Shown: positions 21,177 to 31,697, counted from the first letter of the stretch. The stretch: 41,315 nucleotides of DNA from a virus (IMGVR_UViG_3300045988_066741); one strand, 5' to 3'. The notes: generated by a model from the sequence alone, not told the origin. Made by a program: numbers and translations.

Positions 21177-21788
21177 ATGAACGAATCTATGCGAGATCTG
21201 CTGGCTCAGAGATTGCCTGAACTTTTGAAAAAATCCGGGGCTTCCCGCAAGGAACTAGCGGCTTTCTGCGGCGTTTCAGAGAACACCGTTTCTGCCTGGG
21301 TGCGCGGACTGAAGACTCCGCGTCCTGAAAAGATGTCCAGGCTTGCGGAGTTCTTTAATATCAAAGCTACCGACCTTATAAGCCATTCTTTAGACAGGGA
21401 GCTGCATCCCGTACGCTTTCTTCCGCTTATCTCACCTAACGGCGCCATTGTTGACTCTACCGTTCCAGGCAGCTATGGTGCTCTGTCCGAGGGAATAGAT
21501 GCCGACTATGTATGGATCTGCCCGGATGATTCCATGCATTCCGCGGGCATCTGTCGCGGGGATGTGTGTCTGATCAAGGGTTCCAGCGCTGTCCGTGCTG
21601 GGCATCCTGCTCTGATCGTGCTGGACGGCTGCACGATGCTCCGCTTCCTGGAACAGTTCGAATCCGCCATGTATATCCGTCCAGCGTATCCTAGCCAGCA
21701 GGGAGCTCTGCTCACGGGAGACTGGTCTTCCAGGCTCCGTATTCTGGGCTATATCAAGGCGCTCAGGCGCGAATGGAGGCGAGGATAA
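21177..21788 (+). CDS. LexA/CI-type repressor (XRE HTH plus S24 peptidase domain)
   Basis: N-terminal HTH RKELAAFCGVSENTVSAWVRG. The C-terminal segment ICPDDSMHSAGICRGDVCLI contains the S24 serine motif, and a Lys occurs in LGYIKAL. Confidence 0.85.
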   Translation: MNESMRDLLAQRLPELLKKSGASRKELAAFCGVSENTVSAWVRGLKTPRPEKMSRLAEFFNIKATDLISHSLDRELHPVRFLPLISPNGAIVDSTVPGSYGALSEGIDADYVWICPDDSMHSAGICRGDVCLIKGSSAVRAGHPALIVLDGCTMLRFLEQFESAMYIRPAYPSQQGALLTGDWSSRLRILGYIKALRREWRRG

Positions 21789-22898
21789 ATGTCTGTATCT
21801 AAAGATAAGAAACGCGGCACCTGGCTTTATCATGGCTATTATCGAGATGCTACGAATGCGCGCCGGCAGTACTGCCGTCGTGGCTTTGAAACAAAACGAG
21901 ATGCAAAAGAGGCAGAGCGTGCCTTCCTGGAGGCATCTGTCAAGGTTCGCCCTTCCATTACCCTGGACGAGCTGGTTCTTCGATATCACGAAGAATACGA
22001 GATCATGGGAATCAAAGAGGCGACCCTTATATCAAATGAAAGCTATTATCGCAATCATATTCAGAAAAGTCTGGGAGGTGTTCAACTCTCAAAGTTTACC
22101 GCTCCGCTTGTCACACAGTTCATGTCCAGCGTTGCAAAGCGTAAACAAAAAGACGGCACTCCCTATTCTGTTGCAACGATCAACAAAACGAAGGAAGTGC
22201 TGTCTAAATACTTGAGCTATGCCATGCGTCTTGGCTTTATCGACTATAACCCCTGCATGGCCGTCGGTCGCTTCAAGCGTCCATCTGATTATAACACAAA
22301 TGCGCCGAACTTCTGGGAAGTGAAGACGTTTAAATACTTTCTTTCCTTTGTGGATGATCCTTTCTGGGTGGACGTGTTTACGTTCCTCTTTGAGACGGGC
22401 GTACGAGAGGGGGAATTCTTCGCCCTGCAGTGGTCTGATGTTGATCTTGGTGCTGGAACACTCAGCATAAAGAAAACTCTAACTTATAAAACTCTTGGCC
22501 GTGGCTGGGCTCTCACGTCTCCAAAGACGAGGAATTCAATCCGCCGTATTGATCTGCAGGATTCGCTCCTGGAGCTCCTGCGTCGCCGTTACGCTGCGTC
22601 TTCCTGCGTGGATGGATTCTCGTCCGACTTCTTTGTGTTTGGCGATGTAGCGCCTATGTCGCGTCAGAAACTGGCTACAACTCTAGACAGATATATCAGG
22701 CTCACTGGTGTTCCGCGTATCACACCTCACGGCTTCCGTCATTCCCATGCATCGTATCTGATCCGTTCTGGAAAGATAGACGATCAACTTATCGCTGACC
22801 GTTTGGGCCACACTGTCGAAGAAATGCGCAAGACATACGCTCATATTTACGAGGAGTCCAGGCATGATCTGAAGTCAATTCTGAATGAAATATTCTGA
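21789..22898 (+). CDS. int: Tyrosine integrase with an N-terminal arm-binding domain
   Basis: C-terminus HGFRHSHASYLI...LGHTVEEMRKTYAHIY (R-H-R-Y catalytic set). N-terminus KRGTWLYHGYYRD...RRGFETKRDAKEAE. The ATG abuts the repressor stop. Confidence 0.95.
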   Translation: MSVSKDKKRGTWLYHGYYRDATNARRQYCRRGFETKRDAKEAERAFLEASVKVRPSITLDELVLRYHEEYEIMGIKEATLISNESYYRNHIQKSLGGVQLSKFTAPLVTQFMSSVAKRKQKDGTPYSVATINKTKEVLSKYLSYAMRLGFIDYNPCMAVGRFKRPSDYNTNAPNFWEVKTFKYFLSFVDDPFWVDVFTFLFETGVREGEFFALQWSDVDLGAGTLSIKKTLTYKTLGRGWALTSPKTRNSIRRIDLQDSLLELLRRRYAASSCVDGFSSDFFVFGDVAPMSRQKLATTLDRYIRLTGVPRITPHGFRHSHASYLIRSGKIDDQLIADRLGHTVEEMRKTYAHIYEESRHDLKSILNEIF

Positions 22899-22953: not shown

Positions 22954-23137
22954 CCTTTATGTCTTTTCTGATCAGCTGCTTCAGGTATGCGTTGGTCGAG
23001 GTTCCTTCTTCGTTTATTTTCTTTAGATGATCCAGGATATCCTTGTCCAGCTTCATGTTCAGCTTGACGGTCTTGTTTGTGTAGTGCTCAGACAGCCACT
23101 TGTTTGTAGCGTCTTTCTGTGCTTCTGATACAGCCAT
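22937..23137 (-). CDS. Ribbon-helix-helix (CopG/Arc-like) small DNA-binding protein
   Basis: 66 aa. The layout is a strand (KTVKLNMKL), a helix (DKDILDHLKKI) and a second helix (STNAYLKQLIRKDI). SD GGAGGAG. Confidence 0.55.
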   Translation of the reverse strand: MAVSEAQKDATNKWLSEHYTNKTVKLNMKLDKDILDHLKKINEEGTSTNAYLKQLIRKDIKERQEK

Positions 23138-23178
23138 CCTCGTTCTCCTCCATCATTATTTTATAATGCAGAGGTTTG

Positions 23179-23595
23179 CTAGTCTATCTTAAGCTGGATC
23201 GCTGGGATCTCTTTATCTCTGTACTGAATCTGAGTCACCTTTTCCAGTTGTGCTCCAGCCTGTTCAAAATACCAGACACAACGTATCGAATCTGTCCAAG
23301 TGGAGGAATATGTGAAGTGCTTTATTCCATTCTCTTTCATGATTTTAACGTATGAATTTACCTTTTCTGAATTGAAGACTGAATCGAAATTCAGGAATTC
23401 GTTTCCATCCTCAGCGGCTTCTCTGTACGCCCGGTAAACTTCATAGAAGTCCAGCGTTTCCCATTCGAGCATTTTGTTCTGGTGTTCCTTCATCAGCATT
23501 CGCGCTGCGTTTCTTGTTTCCTCATCCTTTGCTTCTCTGTAGGTTCTGATGATTTCATCTTCGAGCCTGCTGTAGTATTCAAATTTGCTTTCCAT
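23179..23595 (-). CDS. Hypothetical 138-aa protein of an autonomous moron
   Basis: Has its own promoter and is bracketed by terminators. The motif IKHFTYSSTWTDSIRCVWYFEQAG resembles uncharacterised proteins I recall from Firmicute conjugative elements. No function can be assigned. Confidence 0.6.
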   Translation of the reverse strand: MESKFEYYSRLEDEIIRTYREAKDEETRNAARMLMKEHQNKMLEWETLDFYEVYRAYREAAEDGNEFLNFDSVFNSEKVNSYVKIMKENGIKHFTYSSTWTDSIRCVWYFEQAGAQLEKVTQIQYRDKEIPAIQLKID

Positions 23596-23622
23596 GTGTG
23601 TTTTTCCTTTCTTCTAGTACCC

Positions 23623-23665
23623 ACAGTATACTGTAGTACAGTATATAGTCAAGCGAATGATTCGC
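23623..23665 (-). promoter_or_regulatory. Moron promoter with palindromic operators
   Basis: On the minus strand: TTGACT (23652-23647), a 16-nt spacer, TATACT (23630-23625). The 12-bp palindrome ACAGTATACTGT (23623-23634) overlaps the -10. A second ACAGTATA is at 23638-23645. The palindrome GCGAAT-g-ATTCGC (23653-23665) abuts the -35. Confidence 0.65.
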
Positions 23666-23679
23666 ATTTTTCTGCAAAC

Positions 23680-23704
23680 AAAAAAAGCCCGGATTTCTCC
23701 GGGT
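23680..23704 (-). terminator. Intrinsic terminator
   Basis: Minus-strand RNA reads CCCGGA-gaaa-TCCGGG followed by U7 (plus-strand A7 at 23680-23686). Confidence 0.75.
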
Positions 23705-23710
23705 TTCTGC

Positions 23711-24019
23711 TTATTTGCTTCTTGATTTCTTGACCTTGGCCACGACCTTGTCTCTCGTAGAGGACTTCTTGTTCTTCTGTGCGTAGTAGTTGTCATAGGC
23801 CGCCTTGATTTTAGCAGGTGCGTCTTCAGGCATTGCTACCTTTGCTTCTGCTGCGTCCTTTGCAAATTCCAGAAGGTCTTCCCAGCCTTCCGTATCCTTT
23901 GCATCGAACCAATCGGGTATCATCCCATTGCCTTCTGTGATCCCCTTGACAGTTGCTCCAAGTTGCATAGGATCGTATAAGTCTTTATCGAATCTGTTGC
24001 GTTTATTGTGGTATGCCAT
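23711..24019 (-). CDS. Small protein coupled to the ART-like gene (candidate immunity/partner)
   Basis: 102 aa. SD AGGAGG lies in the 9-nt gap after the upstream stop. No motif recognised. Confidence 0.55.
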   Translation of the reverse strand: MAYHNKRNRFDKDLYDPMQLGATVKGITEGNGMIPDWFDAKDTEGWEDLLEFAKDAAEAKVAMPEDAPAKIKAAYDNYYAQKNKKSSTRDKVVAKVKKSRSK

Positions 24020-24028
24020 ATTGCCTCC

Positions 24029-24898
24029 TTATTTTATCTTGTGGTTATCCTTAAGTTCATCCCATGTACTGCCAGGTCTGTTTGAAGTTTTGCTCATCAT
24101 TGTCTTTGTCTGATTGTCCATAATCAGGGCGCCCCTGTTCAGTACTTCAGTATAATGATCTCCACCGTCCATCATAGCTTTTCTGATTGATTTTTGGTCT
24201 TTTCCTTTTGCTTCGGTCACTATTGAGTAGCCCTTGGACATAGCATAGATGGCTCGTGTCGTGTATTCATCATAGCCGTAGTCCCTTTGGAGATTATACA
24301 CAAGACTTCCGGGTTTCAGGCCCTCGTTAAAGACTTGATCTCGGAGATCCTGCTCATTAATAATCTTGGCATCATCTCTGATTTTAAAGCGCATAACTGC
24401 TGTGCTATTGTCTCGGTTGTAGCCGTAACTTAAGGATCCCGATAGATTTGGCGTCGAATAAAGTCCAAGTCCATGAGCCGTTCCACCATCCCCATTGTAT
24501 AGAAATGTGTCATCCTTGGCTACGTTTTCAGCTACCCCGGCTGCGCTGAATGCAGAGTTACTGTTGACTGTTCGGTAGATTACCGGGCCGTTTTCCTTGT
24601 CGAAGTCGTCGGAATCCATCAGCTGTGGCTTTCCATCAAGCCCTGAGTTATTGATGAACTTCTGATAACTTGTGCCATATGCCCGGTAGCTGTTCTTCTG
24701 AGGTGCCTTGACAGCATTGCTGATAATTGATTCCTGTGCTTTCTGGTCTAGACTCGCGAATGTCTCGGTTCCGGATAGATTCCGACCTACTGCCCCGCCT
24801 CCGCCTGTACTTGCTGCTGAGGTCGCCGCGGCGGCGACTGTGGTGGCTCCACCGCCTGCAGCTCTTCTTTTGACGCTTCTTTGTCCACCTGAGCCCAT
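24029..24898 (-). CDS. ADP-ribosyltransferase-like protein (divergent)
   Basis: 289 aa. N-terminus MGSGGQRS matches the junction-spanning ART. Also YRAYGTSYQKFINNSGL, VIYRTV, GLYSTPN and HYTEVLNRGAL. Fold assignment by motif only. Confidence 0.45.
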   Translation of the reverse strand: MGSGGQRSVKRRAAGGGATTVAAAATSAASTGGGGAVGRNLSGTETFASLDQKAQESIISNAVKAPQKNSYRAYGTSYQKFINNSGLDGKPQLMDSDDFDKENGPVIYRTVNSNSAFSAAGVAENVAKDDTFLYNGDGGTAHGLGLYSTPNLSGSLSYGYNRDNSTAVMRFKIRDDAKIINEQDLRDQVFNEGLKPGSLVYNLQRDYGYDEYTTRAIYAMSKGYSIVTEAKGKDQKSIRKAMMDGGDHYTEVLNRGALIMDNQTKTMMSKTSNRPGSTWDELKDNHKIK

Positions 24899-24921
24899 AC
24901 TAGTCTTCTCCTCTCATTAAG

Positions 24922-25218
24922 TCAAGACCTCCCGTTTGAGCCTCCGTCGGGGACTGCCACTCTGCCCTCTAGGGAGGCCAGCCGGTCTCGCAGCGCGTTC
25001 TGGTCCTTCTGTAGCGTTGCTACGCGATTGTCCAGTCTGTCACTGATCTTATCTATCTGCTTTTCCAGACGTGTGATGTTGTCGGTTAGGTCATTCAGTT
25101 TTGTCAGAATAACCCCCACCTGCTGGCCATCTTTTTTACTCGCGGTAAGTCGCCCGATTAAAAATCCGGTCAATGCAACGACCAGGCTTCCCAGTGCGAT
25201 GATCTGTCCTGTTTCCAT
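24922..25218 (-). CDS. N-terminally membrane-anchored coiled-coil protein
   Basis: 98 aa. TM segment IIALGSLVVALTGFLIG, followed by heptad-like LNDLTDNITRLEKQIDKISDRLDNRVATLQKD. Adjacent to the holin. Confidence 0.55.
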   Translation of the reverse strand: METGQIIALGSLVVALTGFLIGRLTASKKDGQQVGVILTKLNDLTDNITRLEKQIDKISDRLDNRVATLQKDQNALRDRLASLEGRVAVPDGGSNGRS

Positions 25219-25235
25219 AGACTATCTCCACACTA

Positions 25236-25460
25236 TTACACACTGTCTTTACCGCTTCCATCATCCATCTCAGGCAGTCCAGCGAGGGATGTCAGCAAGG
25301 AATACAGACCGGCAACCGCTGAAGCGCTGGCAACCATTAGCCAGTCCACGTCTTTGATCACCTGTCCTACGGTGAATAGTGATAGTGCTGTCTGTGCCAT
25401 GGTCTTGACGGCTCTTGTTCCTGCTCGTTTCCACCACTCTAGATTGAATAAATTGTTCAT
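25236..25460 (-). CDS. Holin (r1t-like family pattern)
   Basis: 74 aa from the ATG at 25460 (SD AAAAGGAGGAACCCT). Pattern WWKRAGTRAVKTMAQTALSLF...DWLMVASASAVAGLYSLLTSLAGLPE. Two hydrophobic segments. Confidence 0.65.
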   Translation of the reverse strand: MNNLFNLEWWKRAGTRAVKTMAQTALSLFTVGQVIKDVDWLMVASASAVAGLYSLLTSLAGLPEMDDGSGKDSV

Positions 25461-25475
25461 AGGGTTCCTCCTTTT

Positions 25476-25503
25476 AAAATAAAAACCCGGCATTTCTGTC
25501 GGG
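25476..25503 (-). terminator. Intrinsic terminator closing the 5-gene cassette
   Basis: Minus-strand RNA reads CCCGACA-gaaa-TGCCGGG (one mismatch) followed by UUUUUAUUUU. Confidence 0.55.
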
Positions 25504-25511
25504 TATATGCA

Positions 25512-25904
25512 TCAAATGACGCGCTTTACGCTTGCTGTGGCGCTCACCAGTGTTCCTGCTGCACTGACTGTCCAGCTGATCGGTACTGTGGCTCCCTGCG
25601 TGCCCTGGCGTGTCTGTACGGTGCCCTGCACCGGCAGGGTAACTGTTCCGCCTGCTGTTGCGGTAGCCGTGGCCGTTGCACCTGGCACATTTACTCCGCC
25701 TGCCTGCATCTGTACAGTGACGTCTCCAGCAGCAGTGGCTGTGAATACGAAGTTTGCAAGGATTTCAAATGTTCCGGCTTTTCGTATTTCCAGGTTACCG
25801 TTGTTGAGCCTTGCCTCCTGGTTCGTCTGGATGGCTGTAGATCCTAGTGGTATCTTCTGGTTTGCGCTCAGCGCTGTCTGCGTTGTACTAACAGCTACTA
25901 GCAT
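25512..25904 (-). CDS. Stand-alone C1q/TNF-like (BclA C-terminal-domain-like) protein
   Basis: 130 aa, rich in beta-strand residues and T/A/G/V. AGTFEILANFVFTATAAGDVTVQMQAGGVNVPGA ... ASVKRVI parallels the BclA-CTD layout as I recall it. Confidence 0.5.
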   Translation of the reverse strand: MLVAVSTTQTALSANQKIPLGSTAIQTNQEARLNNGNLEIRKAGTFEILANFVFTATAAGDVTVQMQAGGVNVPGATATATATAGGTVTLPVQGTVQTRQGTQGATVPISWTVSAAGTLVSATASVKRVI

Positions 25905-25914
25905 GGCCTGTCAC

Positions 25915-26496
25915 CTACTGCAGAGTAGCTCCAGGGCAGCCGTAGAAGTTGCCGTAGCCGTAGCCTCCATAGCATGGAGGATTTGTCACGTATCTTCCAA
26001 GGCTGCTCAGGATGTTCTGTGTCTGTGTCGCATTGGTAATTGCGCCCAGTGCCTGCTGATAGTCTCTGTTGAGGTTATCGTACTTATCCTGCATCATCTG
26101 TGTCTTCAGATTGCAGCAGCACTGCTCCATCTGATGGCTCAGGTTGTTGATGCTTTCCTGTACGCCGTTGAAGCCCTGCATCATTCCCATCTGTGTCTGG
26201 TTGAATCCCTGCATGTTTGTGACTGTGTTCTGTTCGATGAGTCTTGCGTTCTCATACGCTGTGTCGCACAGTCCGCTGCTCAATCCATCCAGCTTGCTGA
26301 TGATTGACTGTGTGTCAAAGCCTCGCTGCATATCAGCTGATAGGTTGCCGTTACCGTTGTTGCCCCATCCTCCAAATCCGAAGATCAGGAAGAAAAGAAT
26401 TAGAATAATGATTCCGTTTCCTTCCAGAAACCCGTCGTGGTCAGTCGTGTTCTTTGGCATGACTGCCGCAATGTCTGACAATGTCATATTGTCCAT
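25915..26496 (-). CDS. Membrane-anchored Q/N/M-rich protein with a CCC motif and a G/Y/C-rich tail
   Basis: 193 aa. TM segment GIIILILFFLIFGFGGW followed by GNNGNGN. Repeated MQGFN motif, then QCCCNL. The C-terminus is CYGGYGYGNFYGCPG. SD GAAAGGAGAG. Confidence 0.6.
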   Translation of the reverse strand: MDNMTLSDIAAVMPKNTTDHDGFLEGNGIIILILFFLIFGFGGWGNNGNGNLSADMQRGFDTQSIISKLDGLSSGLCDTAYENARLIEQNTVTNMQGFNQTQMGMMQGFNGVQESINNLSHQMEQCCCNLKTQMMQDKYDNLNRDYQQALGAITNATQTQNILSSLGRYVTNPPCYGGYGYGNFYGCPGATLQ

Positions 26497-26538
26497 GTGT
26501 GCTCTCCTTTCATCTCTATTTCCAGTCTGCAGAACTGC

Positions 26539-26724
26539 CTACTTTAGTAGGTTCTTGAATTGCTCCGCCATCGCCTTCGCTCTTTCGAGGTCCTGCTGTG
26601 TGTACTTTCCTGAGTTCATCAGCTGGTTCAGAACCGCCTGCGGGTTCTGTCCCTGCATTGATCTCTTGAAGTCCATAAACTGCTGGAGCATGTTTCTCTG
26701 ATTGTTATTTCTTAGAGGATTCAT
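26539..26724 (-). CDS. Q/N-rich helical small protein
   Basis: 61 aa. SD GGAGG. Overlaps the upstream gene by 20 nt. Confidence 0.5.
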   Translation of the reverse strand: MNPLRNNNQRNMLQQFMDFKRSMQGQNPQAVLNQLMNSGKYTQQDLERAKAMAEQFKNLLK

Positions 26725-27058
26725 CGCTGTTTCCTCCGTTCTGTTTTCTGTTCTGAATCGAGGAGATCCATTCCTGGAATTCCTTTTTTGTCAGATAGAT
26801 GTCTTCTGGCCTGTCTTCATGTACCTCCTGGAACTGGTACGCCTTGATGGTTCTGTAGCCGCTGGCATCTGCCTGCACGTGGTAAAAGATCGGATTGTTG
26901 CTGTCCATCAGGATGGCGGATTCGTTAGGTCTCAGGCTGTAGGCCTTTGCGCTCTCCATGCCATTGACGTACTGCACCTGATTGATGGACTGAGGCTGCT
27001 GGAAGGCTTGGAATCCAAATCCTCCGGCACCCTGTGGGTATCCTTGAAATGGTGTCAT
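26705..27058 (-). CDS. Protein with a Q/G-rich N-terminus and a small beta-rich domain
   Basis: 117 aa. MTPFQGYPQGAGGFGFQAFQQPQ, then VNGMESAKAYSLRPNESAILMDSNNPIFYHV...IKAYQFQEV. SD AAAGGAGAA. Confidence 0.6.
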   Translation of the reverse strand: MTPFQGYPQGAGGFGFQAFQQPQSINQVQYVNGMESAKAYSLRPNESAILMDSNNPIFYHVQADASGYRTIKAYQFQEVHEDRPEDIYLTKKEFQEWISSIQNRKQNGGNSDESSKK

Positions 27059-27080
27059 AGTGTATTTCTCCTTTACAACA

Positions 27081-27377
27081 TCATCTTATACCCTGTGGAT
27101 CCACCATTCTGTCCCTCTTTTGTGCCTCAAATGCGGAAAGTGCCAGGGACACCAAAAGTCTCCAGTAGTAGTAGTCGTTAAGATCCTTTACCGTTTCTTC
27201 GAACTCATCTTTAGACATTTTTGCATCCTGGTAGTGCCACTCGCTGTCTTGCATCTTGTTTCGCAGCTGGTACACCACAGCCTTCTGCCTTTCGCTCAGC
27301 CCCTGTTCTTCTACCAGGAAATGCACGAAGTCGGGAGGCAGTGGTGTCTGATATCGTCTGTTTACTCTGCGGTTCAT
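27081..27377 (-). CDS. Hypothetical 98-aa protein, first gene of the cassette
   Basis: ORF with SD GGGAGAAG, 23 nt after the endolysin stop. Confidence 0.55.
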   Translation of the reverse strand: MNRRVNRRYQTPLPPDFVHFLVEEQGLSERQKAVVYQLRNKMQDSEWHYQDAKMSKDEFEETVKDLNDYYYWRLLVSLALSAFEAQKRDRMVDPQGIR

Positions 27378-27400
27378 GTGTGTTTGCTTCTCCCGTCTGG

Positions 27401-28351
27401 CTACTTCACGCGGATTCTCTGTCCAGCGTAGATGCGGTTAGGATCTGCGATGCCGTTCATAGCGGCCAGCTTCTGGTACGTTGTGCCATATCTTGCTGCA
27501 ATGGCTGACAGTGTGTCTCCTCTTCTGATCGTGTAGTAGACGGCTCTTCTTGCGGCCATTTTCCTGTTGACGATTGCCTGCACCACTGCGTAGTTGTAGC
27601 CTGCAGCAGTCAAGCGCTTTTTACGATCTTCACCGTTGCCCCAGGCGCCGTTGATGACTTCCTGTGCGATGACTTCGTTTGACTTTCTTGCTGGTGCTGG
27701 AGCTGGTGCTGGCTTTGACGCAGTTCCGCTCTTGCCTGCATACTTGTTCCATGTGTTTACGTCACCATAGAACACGTTGCAGTCCAGGTTACCGTTGTAG
27801 CCATTCAGGCGGCCGGAGCTTGTCCACTGCCACATGCAGTAGAAAGGCCACCACTTTACTTTTGGTCGTGATCCTGCGCTGGCCATACTGTAGTTGTAGT
27901 CAGGGTTGTTGTCTCTGTACTTGGCTACCCATAGGCCGTAGTCTGCTGCCGCAACTGCAGACCAGTTGTGCGCGTTGACTACTGACTCGGACATGTAGAT
28001 CACTGGCTTTACTCCTGAAAGCTGATATACTCGGTCGAGCCATCTCTTCGCCCAGGCGACGTCGCTTGTGTTTCCGGATTCCCAGTCAAGAATTGGGATA
28101 CCTTTTCCAAAGTATCCACGGCAGTTGTTGTAGAAGTATTCTGCTTCTCTGACTGCGTCATTTGTCGGTCTAGCGAAATGATAGAATCCGAAAGGCTTGC
28201 CCAGCTTGATTGCCTGCTGGATGAATTTGTCGCAGTACTTGTCTACGAAGTTGAGGCCTTCCGTTGCCTTTGCAATCACGAAATCGCAGGCAACATCTGA
28301 AATGTTCAGGCCTGCCTGCCAGTTTGATACATCGATACCGTTCATTGTCAT
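27401..28351 (-). CDS. Endolysin: GH25 muramidase plus CW_7 repeat plus LysM
   Basis: N-terminus [10 protein letters not shown]...[10 protein letters not shown] (GH25). Middle [32 protein letters not shown] (Cpl-7-type repeat). C-terminus [29 protein letters not shown] (LysM). Confidence 0.9.
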
Positions 28352-28374
28352 ACCGTCTCCTCCTTTAATCTGAC

Positions 28375-28405
28375 AAAATAAAAACTTGAGATAATTTCCT
28401 CAAGT
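28375..28405 (-). terminator. Intrinsic terminator between the tail/fibre operon and the endolysin
   Basis: Minus-strand RNA reads ACTTGAG-gaaattat-CTCAAGT followed by UUUUUAUUUU. Confidence 0.7.
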
Positions 28406-28410
28406 CTTTG

Positions 28411-28521
28411 TTAGCTGTTTGTCTGCTTCAGTGCTTCTGCCACTGCATCGTGCCATCTCTTAGGCACTTCTTCCAGTGTCATGCGATTCATTGTGATTTG
28501 TCTTACGTACCATTTAACCAT
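28411..28521 (-). CDS. 36-aa conserved-type small tail-module protein (XkdX/CD1375-like position)
   Basis: Own translation: MVKWYVRQITMNRMTLEEVPKRWHDAVAEALKQTNS. The pattern (short protein, ..T.EEVP....V...L) resembles small ORFs found at the end of fibre modules in Firmicute phages. Confidence 0.45.
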   Translation of the reverse strand: MVKWYVRQITMNRMTLEEVPKRWHDAVAEALKQTNS

Positions 28522-28523
28522 GA

Positions 28524-28928
28524 CTATTCTCCTCCTCCAACAATTTCTGCAAGTGCAGCAATTGCCCCGTTGATAGCTGTGATGTCAGCGGTGTTCTGTG
28601 CAGAAGCATTCTGTAGTGTTTGAATCGCCTTTGTTGCATCTACAACGGCTTCTCTTGTTTCCTTAACTTCGAGAGTTACCGTAGTGGTGTTCTCCCTGGA
28701 ATTTACGGAGATGCTGTCTCCGAGGCTGTACCCTTTCGCGGTCAGAACTGTCTCGCCCAGTTCGTTTAGAATTTGGATGTCTGCGATCTGTTCTGTTGCC
28801 AATGCTTCTACCGCCTGCTGGTATCCCATATCTAATAGTGTTATTGAGACTTTACCTTCTTTTGTGTTGAATTCTTTAATGTCTAGCTTTGTTCCGTCTT
28901 TCAGGACTAGCTTTTTATTATATTCCAT
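28524..28928 (-). CDS. Hypothetical tail-fibre-module protein
   Basis: 134-aa ORF with an SD. Has a C-terminal coiled segment. Assigned by position only. Confidence 0.5.
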   Translation of the reverse strand: MEYNKKLVLKDGTKLDIKEFNTKEGKVSITLLDMGYQQAVEALATEQIADIQILNELGETVLTAKGYSLGDSISVNSRENTTTVTLEVKETREAVVDATKAIQTLQNASAQNTADITAINGAIAALAEIVGGGE

Positions 28929-28940
28929 TTACTTTTCTCC

Positions 28941-29420
28941 TTACGCTGTGCGTTTCCAGATGTTTACTGCCAGATATGGCTGCATGTTGTTATGACTTGC
29001 ACCTCCACCTTCTGCATTTGTGCGTAAAATATTGCTAGATGTTGAACTCGATGCACTTGTCTGGTCAATGTATAGAACCTGGTCTCCGTCCTTATTCCAT
29101 GCATCTGCTTTAAGTCCGTAGTTGCTTAATTTGTAGTTATATACTTTACCCGCAGTGTGCCCATGAGGTGGCATTTCATTTCCACTCAGATAATGCTTTT
29201 CTTCGCCACCAGTTGAGCCTAGTGTGTAATCGCCCCCAGCCTGGATGAGACACTGTCCTTCCGCAATCTTTGACCAAGTGCCTCCCCAGTGATTTGCTGG
29301 ATTAAAGCTTGAACTGATGGTGATATACACAGAACCTACTGGATGCTCGTGGCTGTTCACGAAACCTTTAATTTTTCCCCAGAAATACGTGAGTCCTGTC
29401 TGATCTAAATATTTAGCCAT
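28941..29420 (-). CDS. Tail-collar-domain fibre protein
   Basis: 159 aa. VGSVYI...WGGTW...LSGNEMPPHGH...HNNMQPYLAVNIWKRT is the phage tail collar pattern. The N-terminus KYLDQTGLTYFWGKIK is shared with the upstream fibre gene. Confidence 0.7.
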   Translation of the reverse strand: MAKYLDQTGLTYFWGKIKGFVNSHEHPVGSVYITISSSFNPANHWGGTWSKIAEGQCLIQAGGDYTLGSTGGEEKHYLSGNEMPPHGHTAGKVYNYKLSNYGLKADAWNKDGDQVLYIDQTSASSSTSSNILRTNAEGGGASHNNMQPYLAVNIWKRTA

Positions 29421-30726: not shown

Positions 30727-31071
30727 CTATATGCAGATATCATCGATATCTGCCGTGTCTATCGTAGGTATGCTGGTGACGTCTCCCGGGTCGCCTTTTG
30801 GTCCGGGGTCTCCTTTTTCGCCGGGGTCCCCCTTAGGACCTGGATCTCCTTTAGCTCCGGGGTCACCCTTAGGACCTGGATCTCCTTTCTCACCTGGGTC
30901 GCCCTTAGGTCCAGGCGGTCCTTCTGGTCCGGGATCTCCTTTTTCTCCAGATGATGTTTTTGCCTTCACCATAGCCAGCAGTAGCTTTCCCTGTCGGGCT
31001 GATAGTGGTCTGTCTGGACTTCCGGAGTCCAGAGTATCCTCGACGTCTTTTTTGAATAGTAAATCTGACAT
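30727..31071 (-). CDS. Collagen-like (G-X-Y) fibre protein
   Basis: 18 uninterrupted G-X-Y triplets ([19 protein letters not shown]...). The N-terminus carries the [10 protein letters not shown] fibre motif. ATG at 31071 follows GGAGGATCCT. Confidence 0.85.
30787..30948. repeat. Coding tandem repeat (9-nt period) encoding G-X-Y
   Basis: Repeated ggwcctggrtctcct-type units that correspond to the collagen triplets. Confidence 0.9.
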
Positions 31072-31082
31072 AGGATCCTCCA

Positions 31083-31697
31083 CTAGGCCGTGGCGGAGTC
31101 AATGTCTGCGTTCTCCATCGGTATCATGCCCTTGGAGATTTCTTCATAGTTTGTCTTTGTTCTGTTCATGAAATCCGTGAACTGTGCATCATATCCAGCC
31201 GTCGGGATTCTGTCTGTCCCGTCAATCACCAGCCCGCAGTACGTCTGATTCAGTCTTGTGTCTTCGATGTCTTCTGCGGATATCTCTGATGCATTAGCCC
31301 TGACTCGCACTATTGCAAGGATTATTTCATATACTGAGGCCGTTCTTACCGGTTCAGAGGGTTTAGATCCGCTGCCTTTCACACTCACAAGCGCACACTT
31401 GTTCGTGTCTTTCGTGTACCGCACGGCGATGTAGTCATATCTGGTCGTGCTTTCTGCAGTCGGGATTGTCAGTCCTTCCGTGGCGTTACTGCCGTAGGTG
31501 ATTCCGCCTACTCCTCCTTTGGCTGTCAGCAGGAAGGCATAGCCTGGCTTTACGTCCACAGCCATCCGTCCTGTTGCTGATACCTGGAGGTCGCTTCCTG
31601 TTGCATTAAAGATTCCCGGTGTCCTGGCTACATGAAAAAGCCGGACGTCCTCAGCCAGGTAGTTGGTATCGTCCAGCGGATATGCTTTTTGTGTCAT
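31083..31697 (-). CDS. Putative baseplate/fibre structural protein
   Basis: 204 aa. ATGA-coupled to the upstream tail gene. No secure family assignment. Confidence 0.5.

Follow-up and report, generated by a model that had tools for sequence, protein, structure and literature searches.

Between the endolysin and holin genes of the virus IMGVR_UViG_3300045988_066741 lies a cassette of five small genes, here named g1 to g5 (positions 25512–27377), which is the subject of this report. Coordinates and gene order were read within the whole stretch of 41,315 nucleotides (nt) that was analysed, which we call the window, and all genes of the module region lie on the minus strand. In the direction of transcription, the tail genes are followed by a 36-amino-acid (aa) open reading frame (ORF), a terminator-like hairpin, the endolysin gene that opens the block (27401–28351), g1 (98 aa, soluble; 27081–27377), g2 (117 aa; 26705–27058), g3 (61 aa; 26539–26724), the central component g4 (193 aa; 25915–26496), g5 (130 aa; 25512–25904), a second hairpin, an r1t-type holin gene (25236–25460), genes for a 98-aa, a 289-aa and a 102-aa protein, and a strong terminator past the last of these (23688–23703, same strand). 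We identify the element as an Erysipelotrichaceae prophage: g4 recurs at 99% identity in strain 7770_A6, and related elements are bordered by host genes.

A first-pass annotation, made from the DNA sequence alone, had described five tightly packed genes flanked by these two lysis genes, and on closer analysis the description held. All five ORFs are present on the minus strand, with intergenic gaps of 10–42 nt and a 20-nt overlap between the start of g3 and the end of g2. The endolysin upstream carries the Pfam domains Glyco_hydro_25 (E-value 2.6e-35), CW_7 (7.4e-20) and LysM (3.4e-18) and matches phrog_291 (1.2e-77), while the holin downstream matches Phage_r1t_holin (PF16945; 7e-18) and phrog_443 (1.5e-17). 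The motifs quoted by that annotation (FQGYPQGAGGFGFQAFQQPQ, GNNGNGN, two copies of MQGFN, CCC and a CYGGYGYGNFYGCPG tail) are all found in the translations. Its account of composition stood in part: g2, g3 and g4 are indeed rich in Gln and Asn (19–31% Q+N, against 8.4% for the window proteome), but enrichment in Tyr, Gly and Cys is narrower than claimed, with Cys limited to g4 (6 of 193 residues) and Tyr/Gly richness to the last ~20 residues of the same protein. Compared at the nucleotide level with 50,697 phage records, the region gave only short endolysin matches, and Rfam gave no match over positions 23000–29000. Homologues of the five ORFs are kept at the protein level across diverged phages, from which we judge all five to be real genes.

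To place the cassette among its relatives, we analysed 95 fetched loci together with the window (96 sources; loci are denoted by L-numbers) by ORF calling and iterated hidden Markov model searches. Genes g2, g3, g4 and g5 were found in 82, 78, 93 and 80 of the 96 sources, respectively, always in the same order, which is kept even where g4 proteins share only 25–40% identity. Among the first 96 sources, 60 carry g1 to g5 in order and a further 13 carry g2 to g5 without g1. Carriers include metagenome-assembled genomes (MAGs) assigned to Clostridia, Oscillospiraceae, Drancourtella and Bacilli, as well as ~100-kb SPbeta-like phages, Dulem viruses from lemurs and six cultured phages of Clostridium perfringens, and the clade with a long form of g4 alone spans at least 535 IMG/VR contigs. 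Judged by sequence comparison, g2-g3-g4, usually followed by g5, is a fixed-order module present in hundreds of phage contigs from gut Firmicutes.

The g4 protein matches phrog_16490 (6.5e-17) and has 734 homologues. An acidic N-terminal tail is followed by a single transmembrane helix, a Q/N-rich region in which GFN motifs recur, an invariant or nearly invariant QCCC motif, a conserved LGRY(V/Y)TNPP motif and a C-terminal tail, variable within the family and here rich in Tyr, Gly and Cys. The transmembrane segment (GIIILILFFLIFGFGGW, aa 28–44, encoded at 26365–26415), located with a Kyte–Doolittle window and kept in alignment A2, is the only strongly hydrophobic segment among the five proteins; hydropathy peaks at 2.29 over aa 23–41, with a charge of −4 on the N-terminal tail and −1 after the helix. 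Within the CCC motif (aa 126–128, 26113–26121), C128 is invariant and C126 and C127 nearly so across the family (alignments A2 and A6). The C-terminal tail (GRYVTNPPCYGGYGYGNFYGCPGATLQ, aa 167–193, 25918–25998) is the proposed docking peptide for g5. Neither g2, g3 nor g4 has a match in Pfam, NCBIfam or PADLOC, and neither g2 nor g4 has a significant one in the PDB. A g4 profile built from alignment A2 gave only sub-significant PDB matches (E-values 0.1–0.7), repeatedly to the influenza HA2 coiled coil, and we set these aside as probably compositional.

The fifth gene is the one component to which a fold can be assigned. The first-pass annotation had likened its product to the C1q/TNF-like C-terminal domain of BclA, and several comparisons bear this out. 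The window g5 matches the Pfam family BclA_C (PF18573) at 18.3 bits (E-value 0.0021), below the gathering cut-off of 38 bits, while 14 of 17 relatives match it with E-values down to 1.1e-7 and a profile of the family retrieves BclA chains from the PDB at an E-value of 0.0035. An AlphaFold2 model built as a single chain from alignment A1 (predicted local distance difference test score, pLDDT, 90; predicted template modelling score 0.82) is all-beta, with 11 strands. In a Foldseek search of solved structures, its best matches were the BclA C-terminal domain (E-values 5e-9 to 2e-8; template modelling score, TM, 0.70–0.72), the head of F-BclA, and ExsF/ExsFA (TM 0.75–0.78), with EDA, TWEAK and C1QL2 at a TM of ~0.7. 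Among the predicted viral structures of BFVD, stand-alone phage proteins of 130–150 aa from gut viromes match best (TM up to 0.94), and two of these bear the name 'BclA protein'; heads at the C-termini of collagen-repeat and tail-fibre proteins rank next. On this modelling, g5 is a stand-alone jelly roll of the BclA_C/ExsF/TNF-C1q type, a divergent relative rather than a member of the curated family, and presumably a trimer. It consists of the domain alone from Met1, with neither an exosporium leader nor a Gly-X-Y stalk.

A translated search with g5 (tblastn) against the 50,697 phage records returned nothing. The idea that g5 copies the phage's own receptor-binding head was dropped, as it resembles no other ORF in the window. 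Nor did the suggestion survive that g5 supplies the missing head of the collagen-like protein encoded among the tail genes (118 aa; 30727–31083, minus strand). That protein is headless, as had been observed, ending 18 residues past its Gly-X-Y run, but the link is not kept: a collagen-like ORF lies in the fetched flanks of only 12 of 80 g5-bearing loci. The number of Gly-X-Y repeats varies among near-identical prophages (102–118 aa in the window and L016–L021) and the protein is missing from most other module-bearing loci. The window g5 has no Cys at all; distant relatives (L009, L013 and L100; P0048 and P0050 in alignment A1) have loop clusters of the form CGCC, CCC or CNC.

The tail of g4 and the identity of the next gene vary together. 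Counting distinct sequences and ignoring shared ancestry, here and in the correlation that follows, 36 of 39 g4 tails rich in aromatic residues and Cys (Tyr, Phe, Trp, Cys) are followed within 1.2 kb either by g5 (18 forms) or by g5' (18 forms), a second beta-rich, Cys-containing family of 119–150 aa whose L169 and L073 members match in BLASTP at an E-value of 4e-13; the other three are followed by an unassigned ORF of 138–152 aa. By contrast, none of the six distinct tail-poor g4 sequences, which come from three lineages and have endings such as ...NPPVAAT, ...NPPYAPTTGTTTTG or ...PPLATTTTTTTT, has g5 or g5' next to it. A prediction made beforehand for one of these lineages was borne out in the tail-less P0153, which has no g5 and is followed by a scaffold protein gene. 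The Cys count of the tail also tracks that of the fifth protein (Spearman rho 0.73 across 37 unique tails; 0.79 within the g5 family), with the window clade at the Cys-poor extreme of the range. This pairing of tail with fifth gene, together with the co-variation in Cys, suggests that the g4 tail is directly coupled to the jelly-roll protein in function, and probably physically as well.

A precedent comes from the exosporium of the Bacillus cereus group, where ExsF (BxpB/ExsFA; PDB 9H3D, 7R1M) is, like g5, a stand-alone jelly roll of ~130–170 aa with no signal peptide. Crystal structure 9H3D shows trimeric ExsF with the F-Anchor leader bound in the inter-protomer clefts, where Pro/aromatic-rich leader peptides, of F-Anchor and of BclA, are clamped (PMC12357932). 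The counterpart of that partner peptide here would be the g4 tail NPPCYGGYGYGNFYGCPG, and the analogy, taken with the co-variation, suggests that the tail docks a g5 or g5' trimer much as the BclA leader is docked by ExsF. The two systems differ in several respects: sequence identity between ExsF and g5 is only 11–14%; the partner peptide of ExsF is the N-terminus of a collagen-like fibre, whereas here it is the C-terminus of a membrane protein; and the present module is phage-borne, apparently expressed with lysis genes and has no known exosporium context, with tail binding still putative. The BclA C-terminal domain (PF18573) and the heads of collagen fibres from phages and giant viruses share the fold of g5, with weak but consistent profile similarity; unlike BclA, g5 has neither a collagen stalk nor an N-terminal extension and is not tied to the phage's collagen-like gene.

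The first-pass annotation had favoured a more literal reading of such resemblances, in which the cassette encodes spore-coat or exosporium-like proteins; these would assemble in the cytoplasm of a host undergoing sporulation and remodel the surface of its spores or decorate it. It is true that the closest solved structures to g5 are exosporium proteins, that tail-to-trimer docking would mirror ExsF with BclA (PMC12357932), that no component has a signal peptide, as with coat proteins, and that cross-linked coat layers are called to mind by the Cys clusters of g4 and many g5 or g5' relatives, by the Tyr/Gly tail and by the Q-rich segments. In addition, Clostridia are frequent among the hosts, and C. 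perfringens is a spore former. The BclA_C fold is, however, widespread in phages, both stand-alone and as fibre heads, so that on its own it is no spore signature, and in Pfam and NCBIfam g1 to g4 match no family of spore-coat or exosporium proteins, GerQ, CotY/ExsY, Tyr-rich Cot and CdeC-like ones included (E-value ≤1), BclA_C being found for g5 only. Among 50 diverse g2 relatives, just one gave a match, at chance level, to a microsporidian 'spore wall protein' model. Moreover, the genes are apparently transcribed together with the endolysin, and apart from the late-gene promoter none was found; the module is often embedded in head-gene clusters; it is carried by C. perfringens phages that one paper, naming two of them, calls lytic; a collagen-like gene is near g5 in only the 12 of 80 loci mentioned above; and the main text of a survey of sporulation genes in gut phages makes no mention of coat or exosporium genes (PMC10294663). 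We now regard a spore-coat role as very improbable. A related proposal, that a Cys/Tyr-rich stalk, a BclA/ExsF-like trimer and two Q-rich partners build a cross-linked layer at the membrane during infection or sporulation, also seems decidedly unlikely.

Two smaller proteins accompany g4 and g5 in the shared core of the module. The g2 protein has a disordered N-terminus rich in Gln, Gly and Phe (aa 1–26), a small beta domain (aa 29–75) and a C-terminal helix (aa 91–106). It matches phrog_21718 (5.8e-12), as do all 50 of 50 diverse relatives, and belongs to a family of 2226 clusters at 50% identity, the best 150 of which are all 71–182 aa long. Its AlphaFold2 model (pLDDT 65 overall, ~86 for the beta core) has no significant fold match and a 50-member profile finds nothing in Pfam or the PDB. 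A natural fusion, which might reveal a partner of g2, occurs in the Drancourtella MAG prophage L015: a 444-aa protein (6148–7482) ends in the g2 domain (aa 313–444), and its N-terminal part matches phrog_31690, of unknown function. The g3 protein (31% Q/N) matches phrog_22984 (2e-13) and lies between g2 and g4 in the 78 sources that carry it. All three core families, phrog_21718, phrog_22984 and phrog_16490, are annotated as of unknown function.

By comparison, g1 is a clade-specific addition to the module: it occurs in 64 loci, always directly upstream of g2 and only in the clade that has the module inside the lysis cassette, and has no match in Pfam, PHROGs, NCBIfam or the PDB. We considered g1 as a sigma-region-4-like regulator, from an 'LSERQK' stretch and the regulator found in L075, and rejected the idea (BLASTP E-value 0.27; PDB search unsupportive). 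The L075 protein (185 aa; 6497–7054), itself directly upstream of g2, has several hydrophobic segments and a C-terminal helix-turn-helix (HTH) and matches the transcription regulators phrog_36 and phrog_248; it may be a module-specific regulator.

The genomic setting of the module differs from lineage to lineage. It lies inside or beside lysis cassettes of varied make-up: with a GH25 endolysin and r1t holin in the window, Amidase_2 and r1t in L005, an SH3_5 lysin and Dp-1 holin in L099, a different 287-aa lysin and r1t in L024, holin_6_1 and Peptidase_M23 in L009 and L098, and a phrog_199 holin with a phrog_435 lysin in L015, making four different holin types and five different lysin types in all. 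Such linkage is seen in the window clade, L005, L099, the L024 clade, L009/L098, L015 and possibly L084. It is absent from Dulem virus 35, L171, the L194 clade, the SPbeta-like phages and the C. perfringens phages; association with lysis genes is frequent, not universal. Endolysins 65–76% identical to that of the window occur without the module, and the claim that the cassette is an insertion is upheld by L110, where a 76% identical endolysin is followed directly by a holin-like gene. These close endolysins without the module, together with its varied positions, mark it as optional, mobile and genuinely inserted.

Several of these positions suit our main rival explanation, a role in the virion or its morphogenesis, in which g5 or g5' would be a trimeric decoration of the capsid or a fibre and g2 to g4 would act as internal, ejection or membrane-bound assembly factors. 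The module directly follows the major capsid gene in the L194 clade, the most abundant, immediately precedes the scaffold gene in Dulem virus 35, L183 and L171, and follows the tail-tube gene in the SPbeta-like L007; TNF/C1q-like domains are common as phage fibre heads and disordered proteins are in principle suited to tail ejection. Yet an N-terminal membrane anchor would be unusual in a particle protein of a tailed phage, and phages with closely related lysis regions do without the module. In the window it lies downstream of the terminator-like hairpin that follows the tail genes, its proteins resemble no tail or head protein of the window and the link to the collagen-like protein is not kept. 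In C. perfringens phage 17DYC, g2-g3-g4 form a separate unit between two terminator-like hairpins, surrounded by small non-structural genes and ~3.8 kb beyond the amidase and holin. A virion role is, in our estimation, possible but not probable.

In these cultured phages (L169, vB_CpeS-17DYC, 4046–5802; L170, vB_CpeP_PMQ04, 4037–5785), the products are 146 aa (g2), 77 aa (g3), 201 aa (g4) and 119 aa (g5'), g4 has an NCCCN motif, g5' is Cys-rich, and the terminator-like hairpins stand before g2 and after g4. We made no use of a 'holin' label that jackhmmer attached to an 89–97-aa gene among the head-tail genes of L183 and the L194 clade, which probably reflects profile drift or inherited misannotation.

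Signals around the cassette bear on when it is made. Between the 36-aa ORF and the endolysin, a terminator scan and reading of the sequence identified a 12-bp terminator-like hairpin with a U-run (28380–28409, minus strand), which is the upstream boundary of the lysin-plus-cassette block; as it ends 28 nt before the endolysin start, transcription of the block would need read-through from the tail operon. The first-pass annotation had found no promoter between lysin and cassette, and the 23-nt gap indeed holds no sigma-70-like match on the minus strand in our promoter search, which was a sigma-70-type scan only. With its genes lying directly behind the endolysin and no promoter found between them, the cassette appears to be co-transcribed with the endolysin.

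The cassette had also been credited with a terminator of its own at 25476–25503. Folding confirmed a hairpin and U-run on the minus strand between g5 and the ribosome-binding site of the holin, but one that is weak (a 5+2-bp stem; −8.4 kcal/mol, z −1.7) and was not called by the terminator scan. A hairpin and U-run stand at the same site in the diverged relatives L024, L060 and L005, with differing stem sequences, and are stronger in L024 (−16.5 kcal/mol, z −2.8) and L005 (−16.4 kcal/mol, z −3.6). There is no room for a promoter between this hairpin and the ribosome-binding site, so the holin must be reached by read-through, and we infer that the element is likely to be an attenuator or a terminator that ends the lysin-plus-cassette block before the holin. 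Predicted folds in L024 (9008–9050) and L005 (7400–7445) let the U-run of the hairpin pair with the Shine–Dalgarno sequence of the holin, which would be a hint that holin expression is damped at the level of translation and not of transcription alone. The module would be transcribed with the endolysin, ahead of a leaky hairpin, and so be made late in infection.

An attenuator-like hairpin conserved between module and holin, and the recurrence of the module inside or beside lysis cassettes of different families, would also fit a dedicated lysis-timing device akin to the T4 holin T and its antiholins, with g4 as a single-helix holin or holin partner and g2, g3 and g5 as regulators. The layout of g4 (a short N-terminal tail, one helix and a Cys-bearing C-terminal part of ~150 aa) resembles that of the class III holin T as generally known, and the T4 system with RI and RIII shares with the module a membrane protein that has one helix and a large C-terminal part containing Cys, small soluble partners and an association with lysis genes. 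There is, on the other hand, no sequence or profile similarity to the T4 proteins; the host type and probably the topology differ; none of g1 to g5 matches a holin, antiholin or spanin family in PHROGs or Pfam; in many lineages the module is remote from lysis genes; and related phages with a close endolysin pass directly to a holin-like gene with no module between. We therefore think a dedicated timing device unlikely. Rz-type i-spanins likewise share with g4 the N-terminal anchor, an extended region (a coiled coil in spanins, presumed here), conserved cysteines and location in a lysis cassette. Only g4 has a transmembrane helix, however, with no lipoprotein partner and no family match, and the hosts are assigned to Gram-positive groups, expected to be without an outer membrane.

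The architecture that we propose is as follows. The genes g2 to g5 would constitute a mobile accessory module of gut-Firmicutes phages, with g1 as a clade-specific extra. The g4 protein would be a single-pass membrane stalk, with a long, presumably helical Q/N-rich region ending in LGRY-TNPP and then the aromatic/Gly/Cys tail, which would serve as docking site for the presumed trimer of g5 (or g5') in an ExsF-like mode, the link probably being reinforced by cysteines in many lineages. The g2 protein, with its disordered Q-rich arm and beta domain, and g3 would be soluble partners, translated just before g4. The lack of a signal peptide in any component, together with the acidic N-terminal tail of g4, leads us to infer that the complex is put together at the cytoplasmic side of the membrane (N-out, C-in).

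The module is optional; most lineages have it in a late or structural operon and several in a lysis cassette; and in the window it appears to be co-expressed with the endolysin. On these grounds, our best guess is that it acts in an accessory capacity at the membrane or envelope of the infected host, a guess that we hold tentatively and at less than even confidence. The first-pass annotation had listed accessory lysis or cell-envelope factors as an alternative to its spore reading, and that alternative now stands closer to the evidence. As to what the accessory role might be, tuning of lysis or release is a possibility to which we give limited credence, and exclusion of superinfecting phages one that we find rather doubtful.

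Several points weigh against an accessory envelope function. None of the components has a homologue of established function, which leaves context as the sole guide to the role, and in the largest clade that context, a position among head genes, would suit a part in the virion or its morphogenesis equally well. Unrelated accessory genes often insert into lysis cassettes and at module boundaries, and adjacency to lysis genes may have no functional meaning. The positive-inside rule gives no clear topology for g4 and, were its C-terminal part to face outwards, g5, g2 and g3, having no signal peptides, could not reach it before lysis. The pairing of tails with fifth genes was counted irrespective of kinship and includes only about three independent tail-less lineages. 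Finally, the absence of a sigma-70-like promoter for expression in the lysogen weakens the exclusion variant in this temperate phage.

Among established exclusion systems, the moron-type membrane proteins (HK97 gp15, lactococcal Sie2009 and TP-J34 Ltp) are likewise encoded by optional membrane-protein genes at late operons or module boundaries, partly bracketed by terminators; they are single genes expressed from the prophage, whereas here three to five genes are co-transcribed, with no promoter detected and no homology. PADLOC defence models matched the module only at chance level (E-values ≥0.007). By membership, the module belongs to no known lysis, exclusion, defence or coat system.

Some neighbouring genes deserve brief description. 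The 36-aa ORF ahead of the endolysin (28411–28521, minus strand) is at the position of a 36–40-aa gene in related loci, annotated XkdX in L005. The 98-aa protein encoded after the holin (24922–25218, minus strand) has an N-terminal transmembrane helix and a coiled coil, matches phrog_1863 (4.6e-6) and, weakly, XhlA and Rz-like proteins, and is also the gene product to which a phrog_739 match belongs, rather than g4; it resembles the XhlA type and is probably a holin accessory. The window clade and L005 (97 aa) both retain it after the holin, and its 82-aa counterpart in L024 matches the same phrog_1863. The 289-aa protein further downstream (24029–24898, minus strand) has a Gly/Ala-rich N-terminus and no match in Pfam, PHROGs, NCBIfam or PADLOC; it is limited to the closest relatives and variable in length (252 aa in L002–L004). 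Two ORFs of 203 and 369 aa (21177–22898) are the sole sizeable plus-strand ORFs near the module free of minus-strand ORFs, and occupy the position where relatives such as L005 have an HTH regulator and an integrase.

Parts of this picture were already known: the three core families exist as anonymous PHROGs and BclA_C-like domains have been recorded in phages. In the literature that we searched there was no description of an ordered, mobile four-gene module or of its wide distribution in phages of gut Firmicutes, nor of co-variation between the g4 tail and the fifth gene implying ExsF-like docking. As the function of the module is unproven, we do not claim it as categorically new. What the analysis does provide is a defined module in place of anonymous genes, with an ordered architecture and a structurally assigned BclA/ExsF-like component, a testable interaction between the g4 tail and g5 or g5', and cultured carriers, the C. 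perfringens phages, as an experimental handle. A cross-linked layer, if one is built, could be a new phage-made structure of the envelope or spore surface, and the module possibly an evolutionary source or sink of ExsF–BclA anchoring. Should the complex control lysis, exclusion or spore properties in abundant gut Firmicutes, it would affect the dynamics between phages and their hosts in the gut and demonstrate that viruses, too, use the TNF-like peptide docking known from the exosporium.

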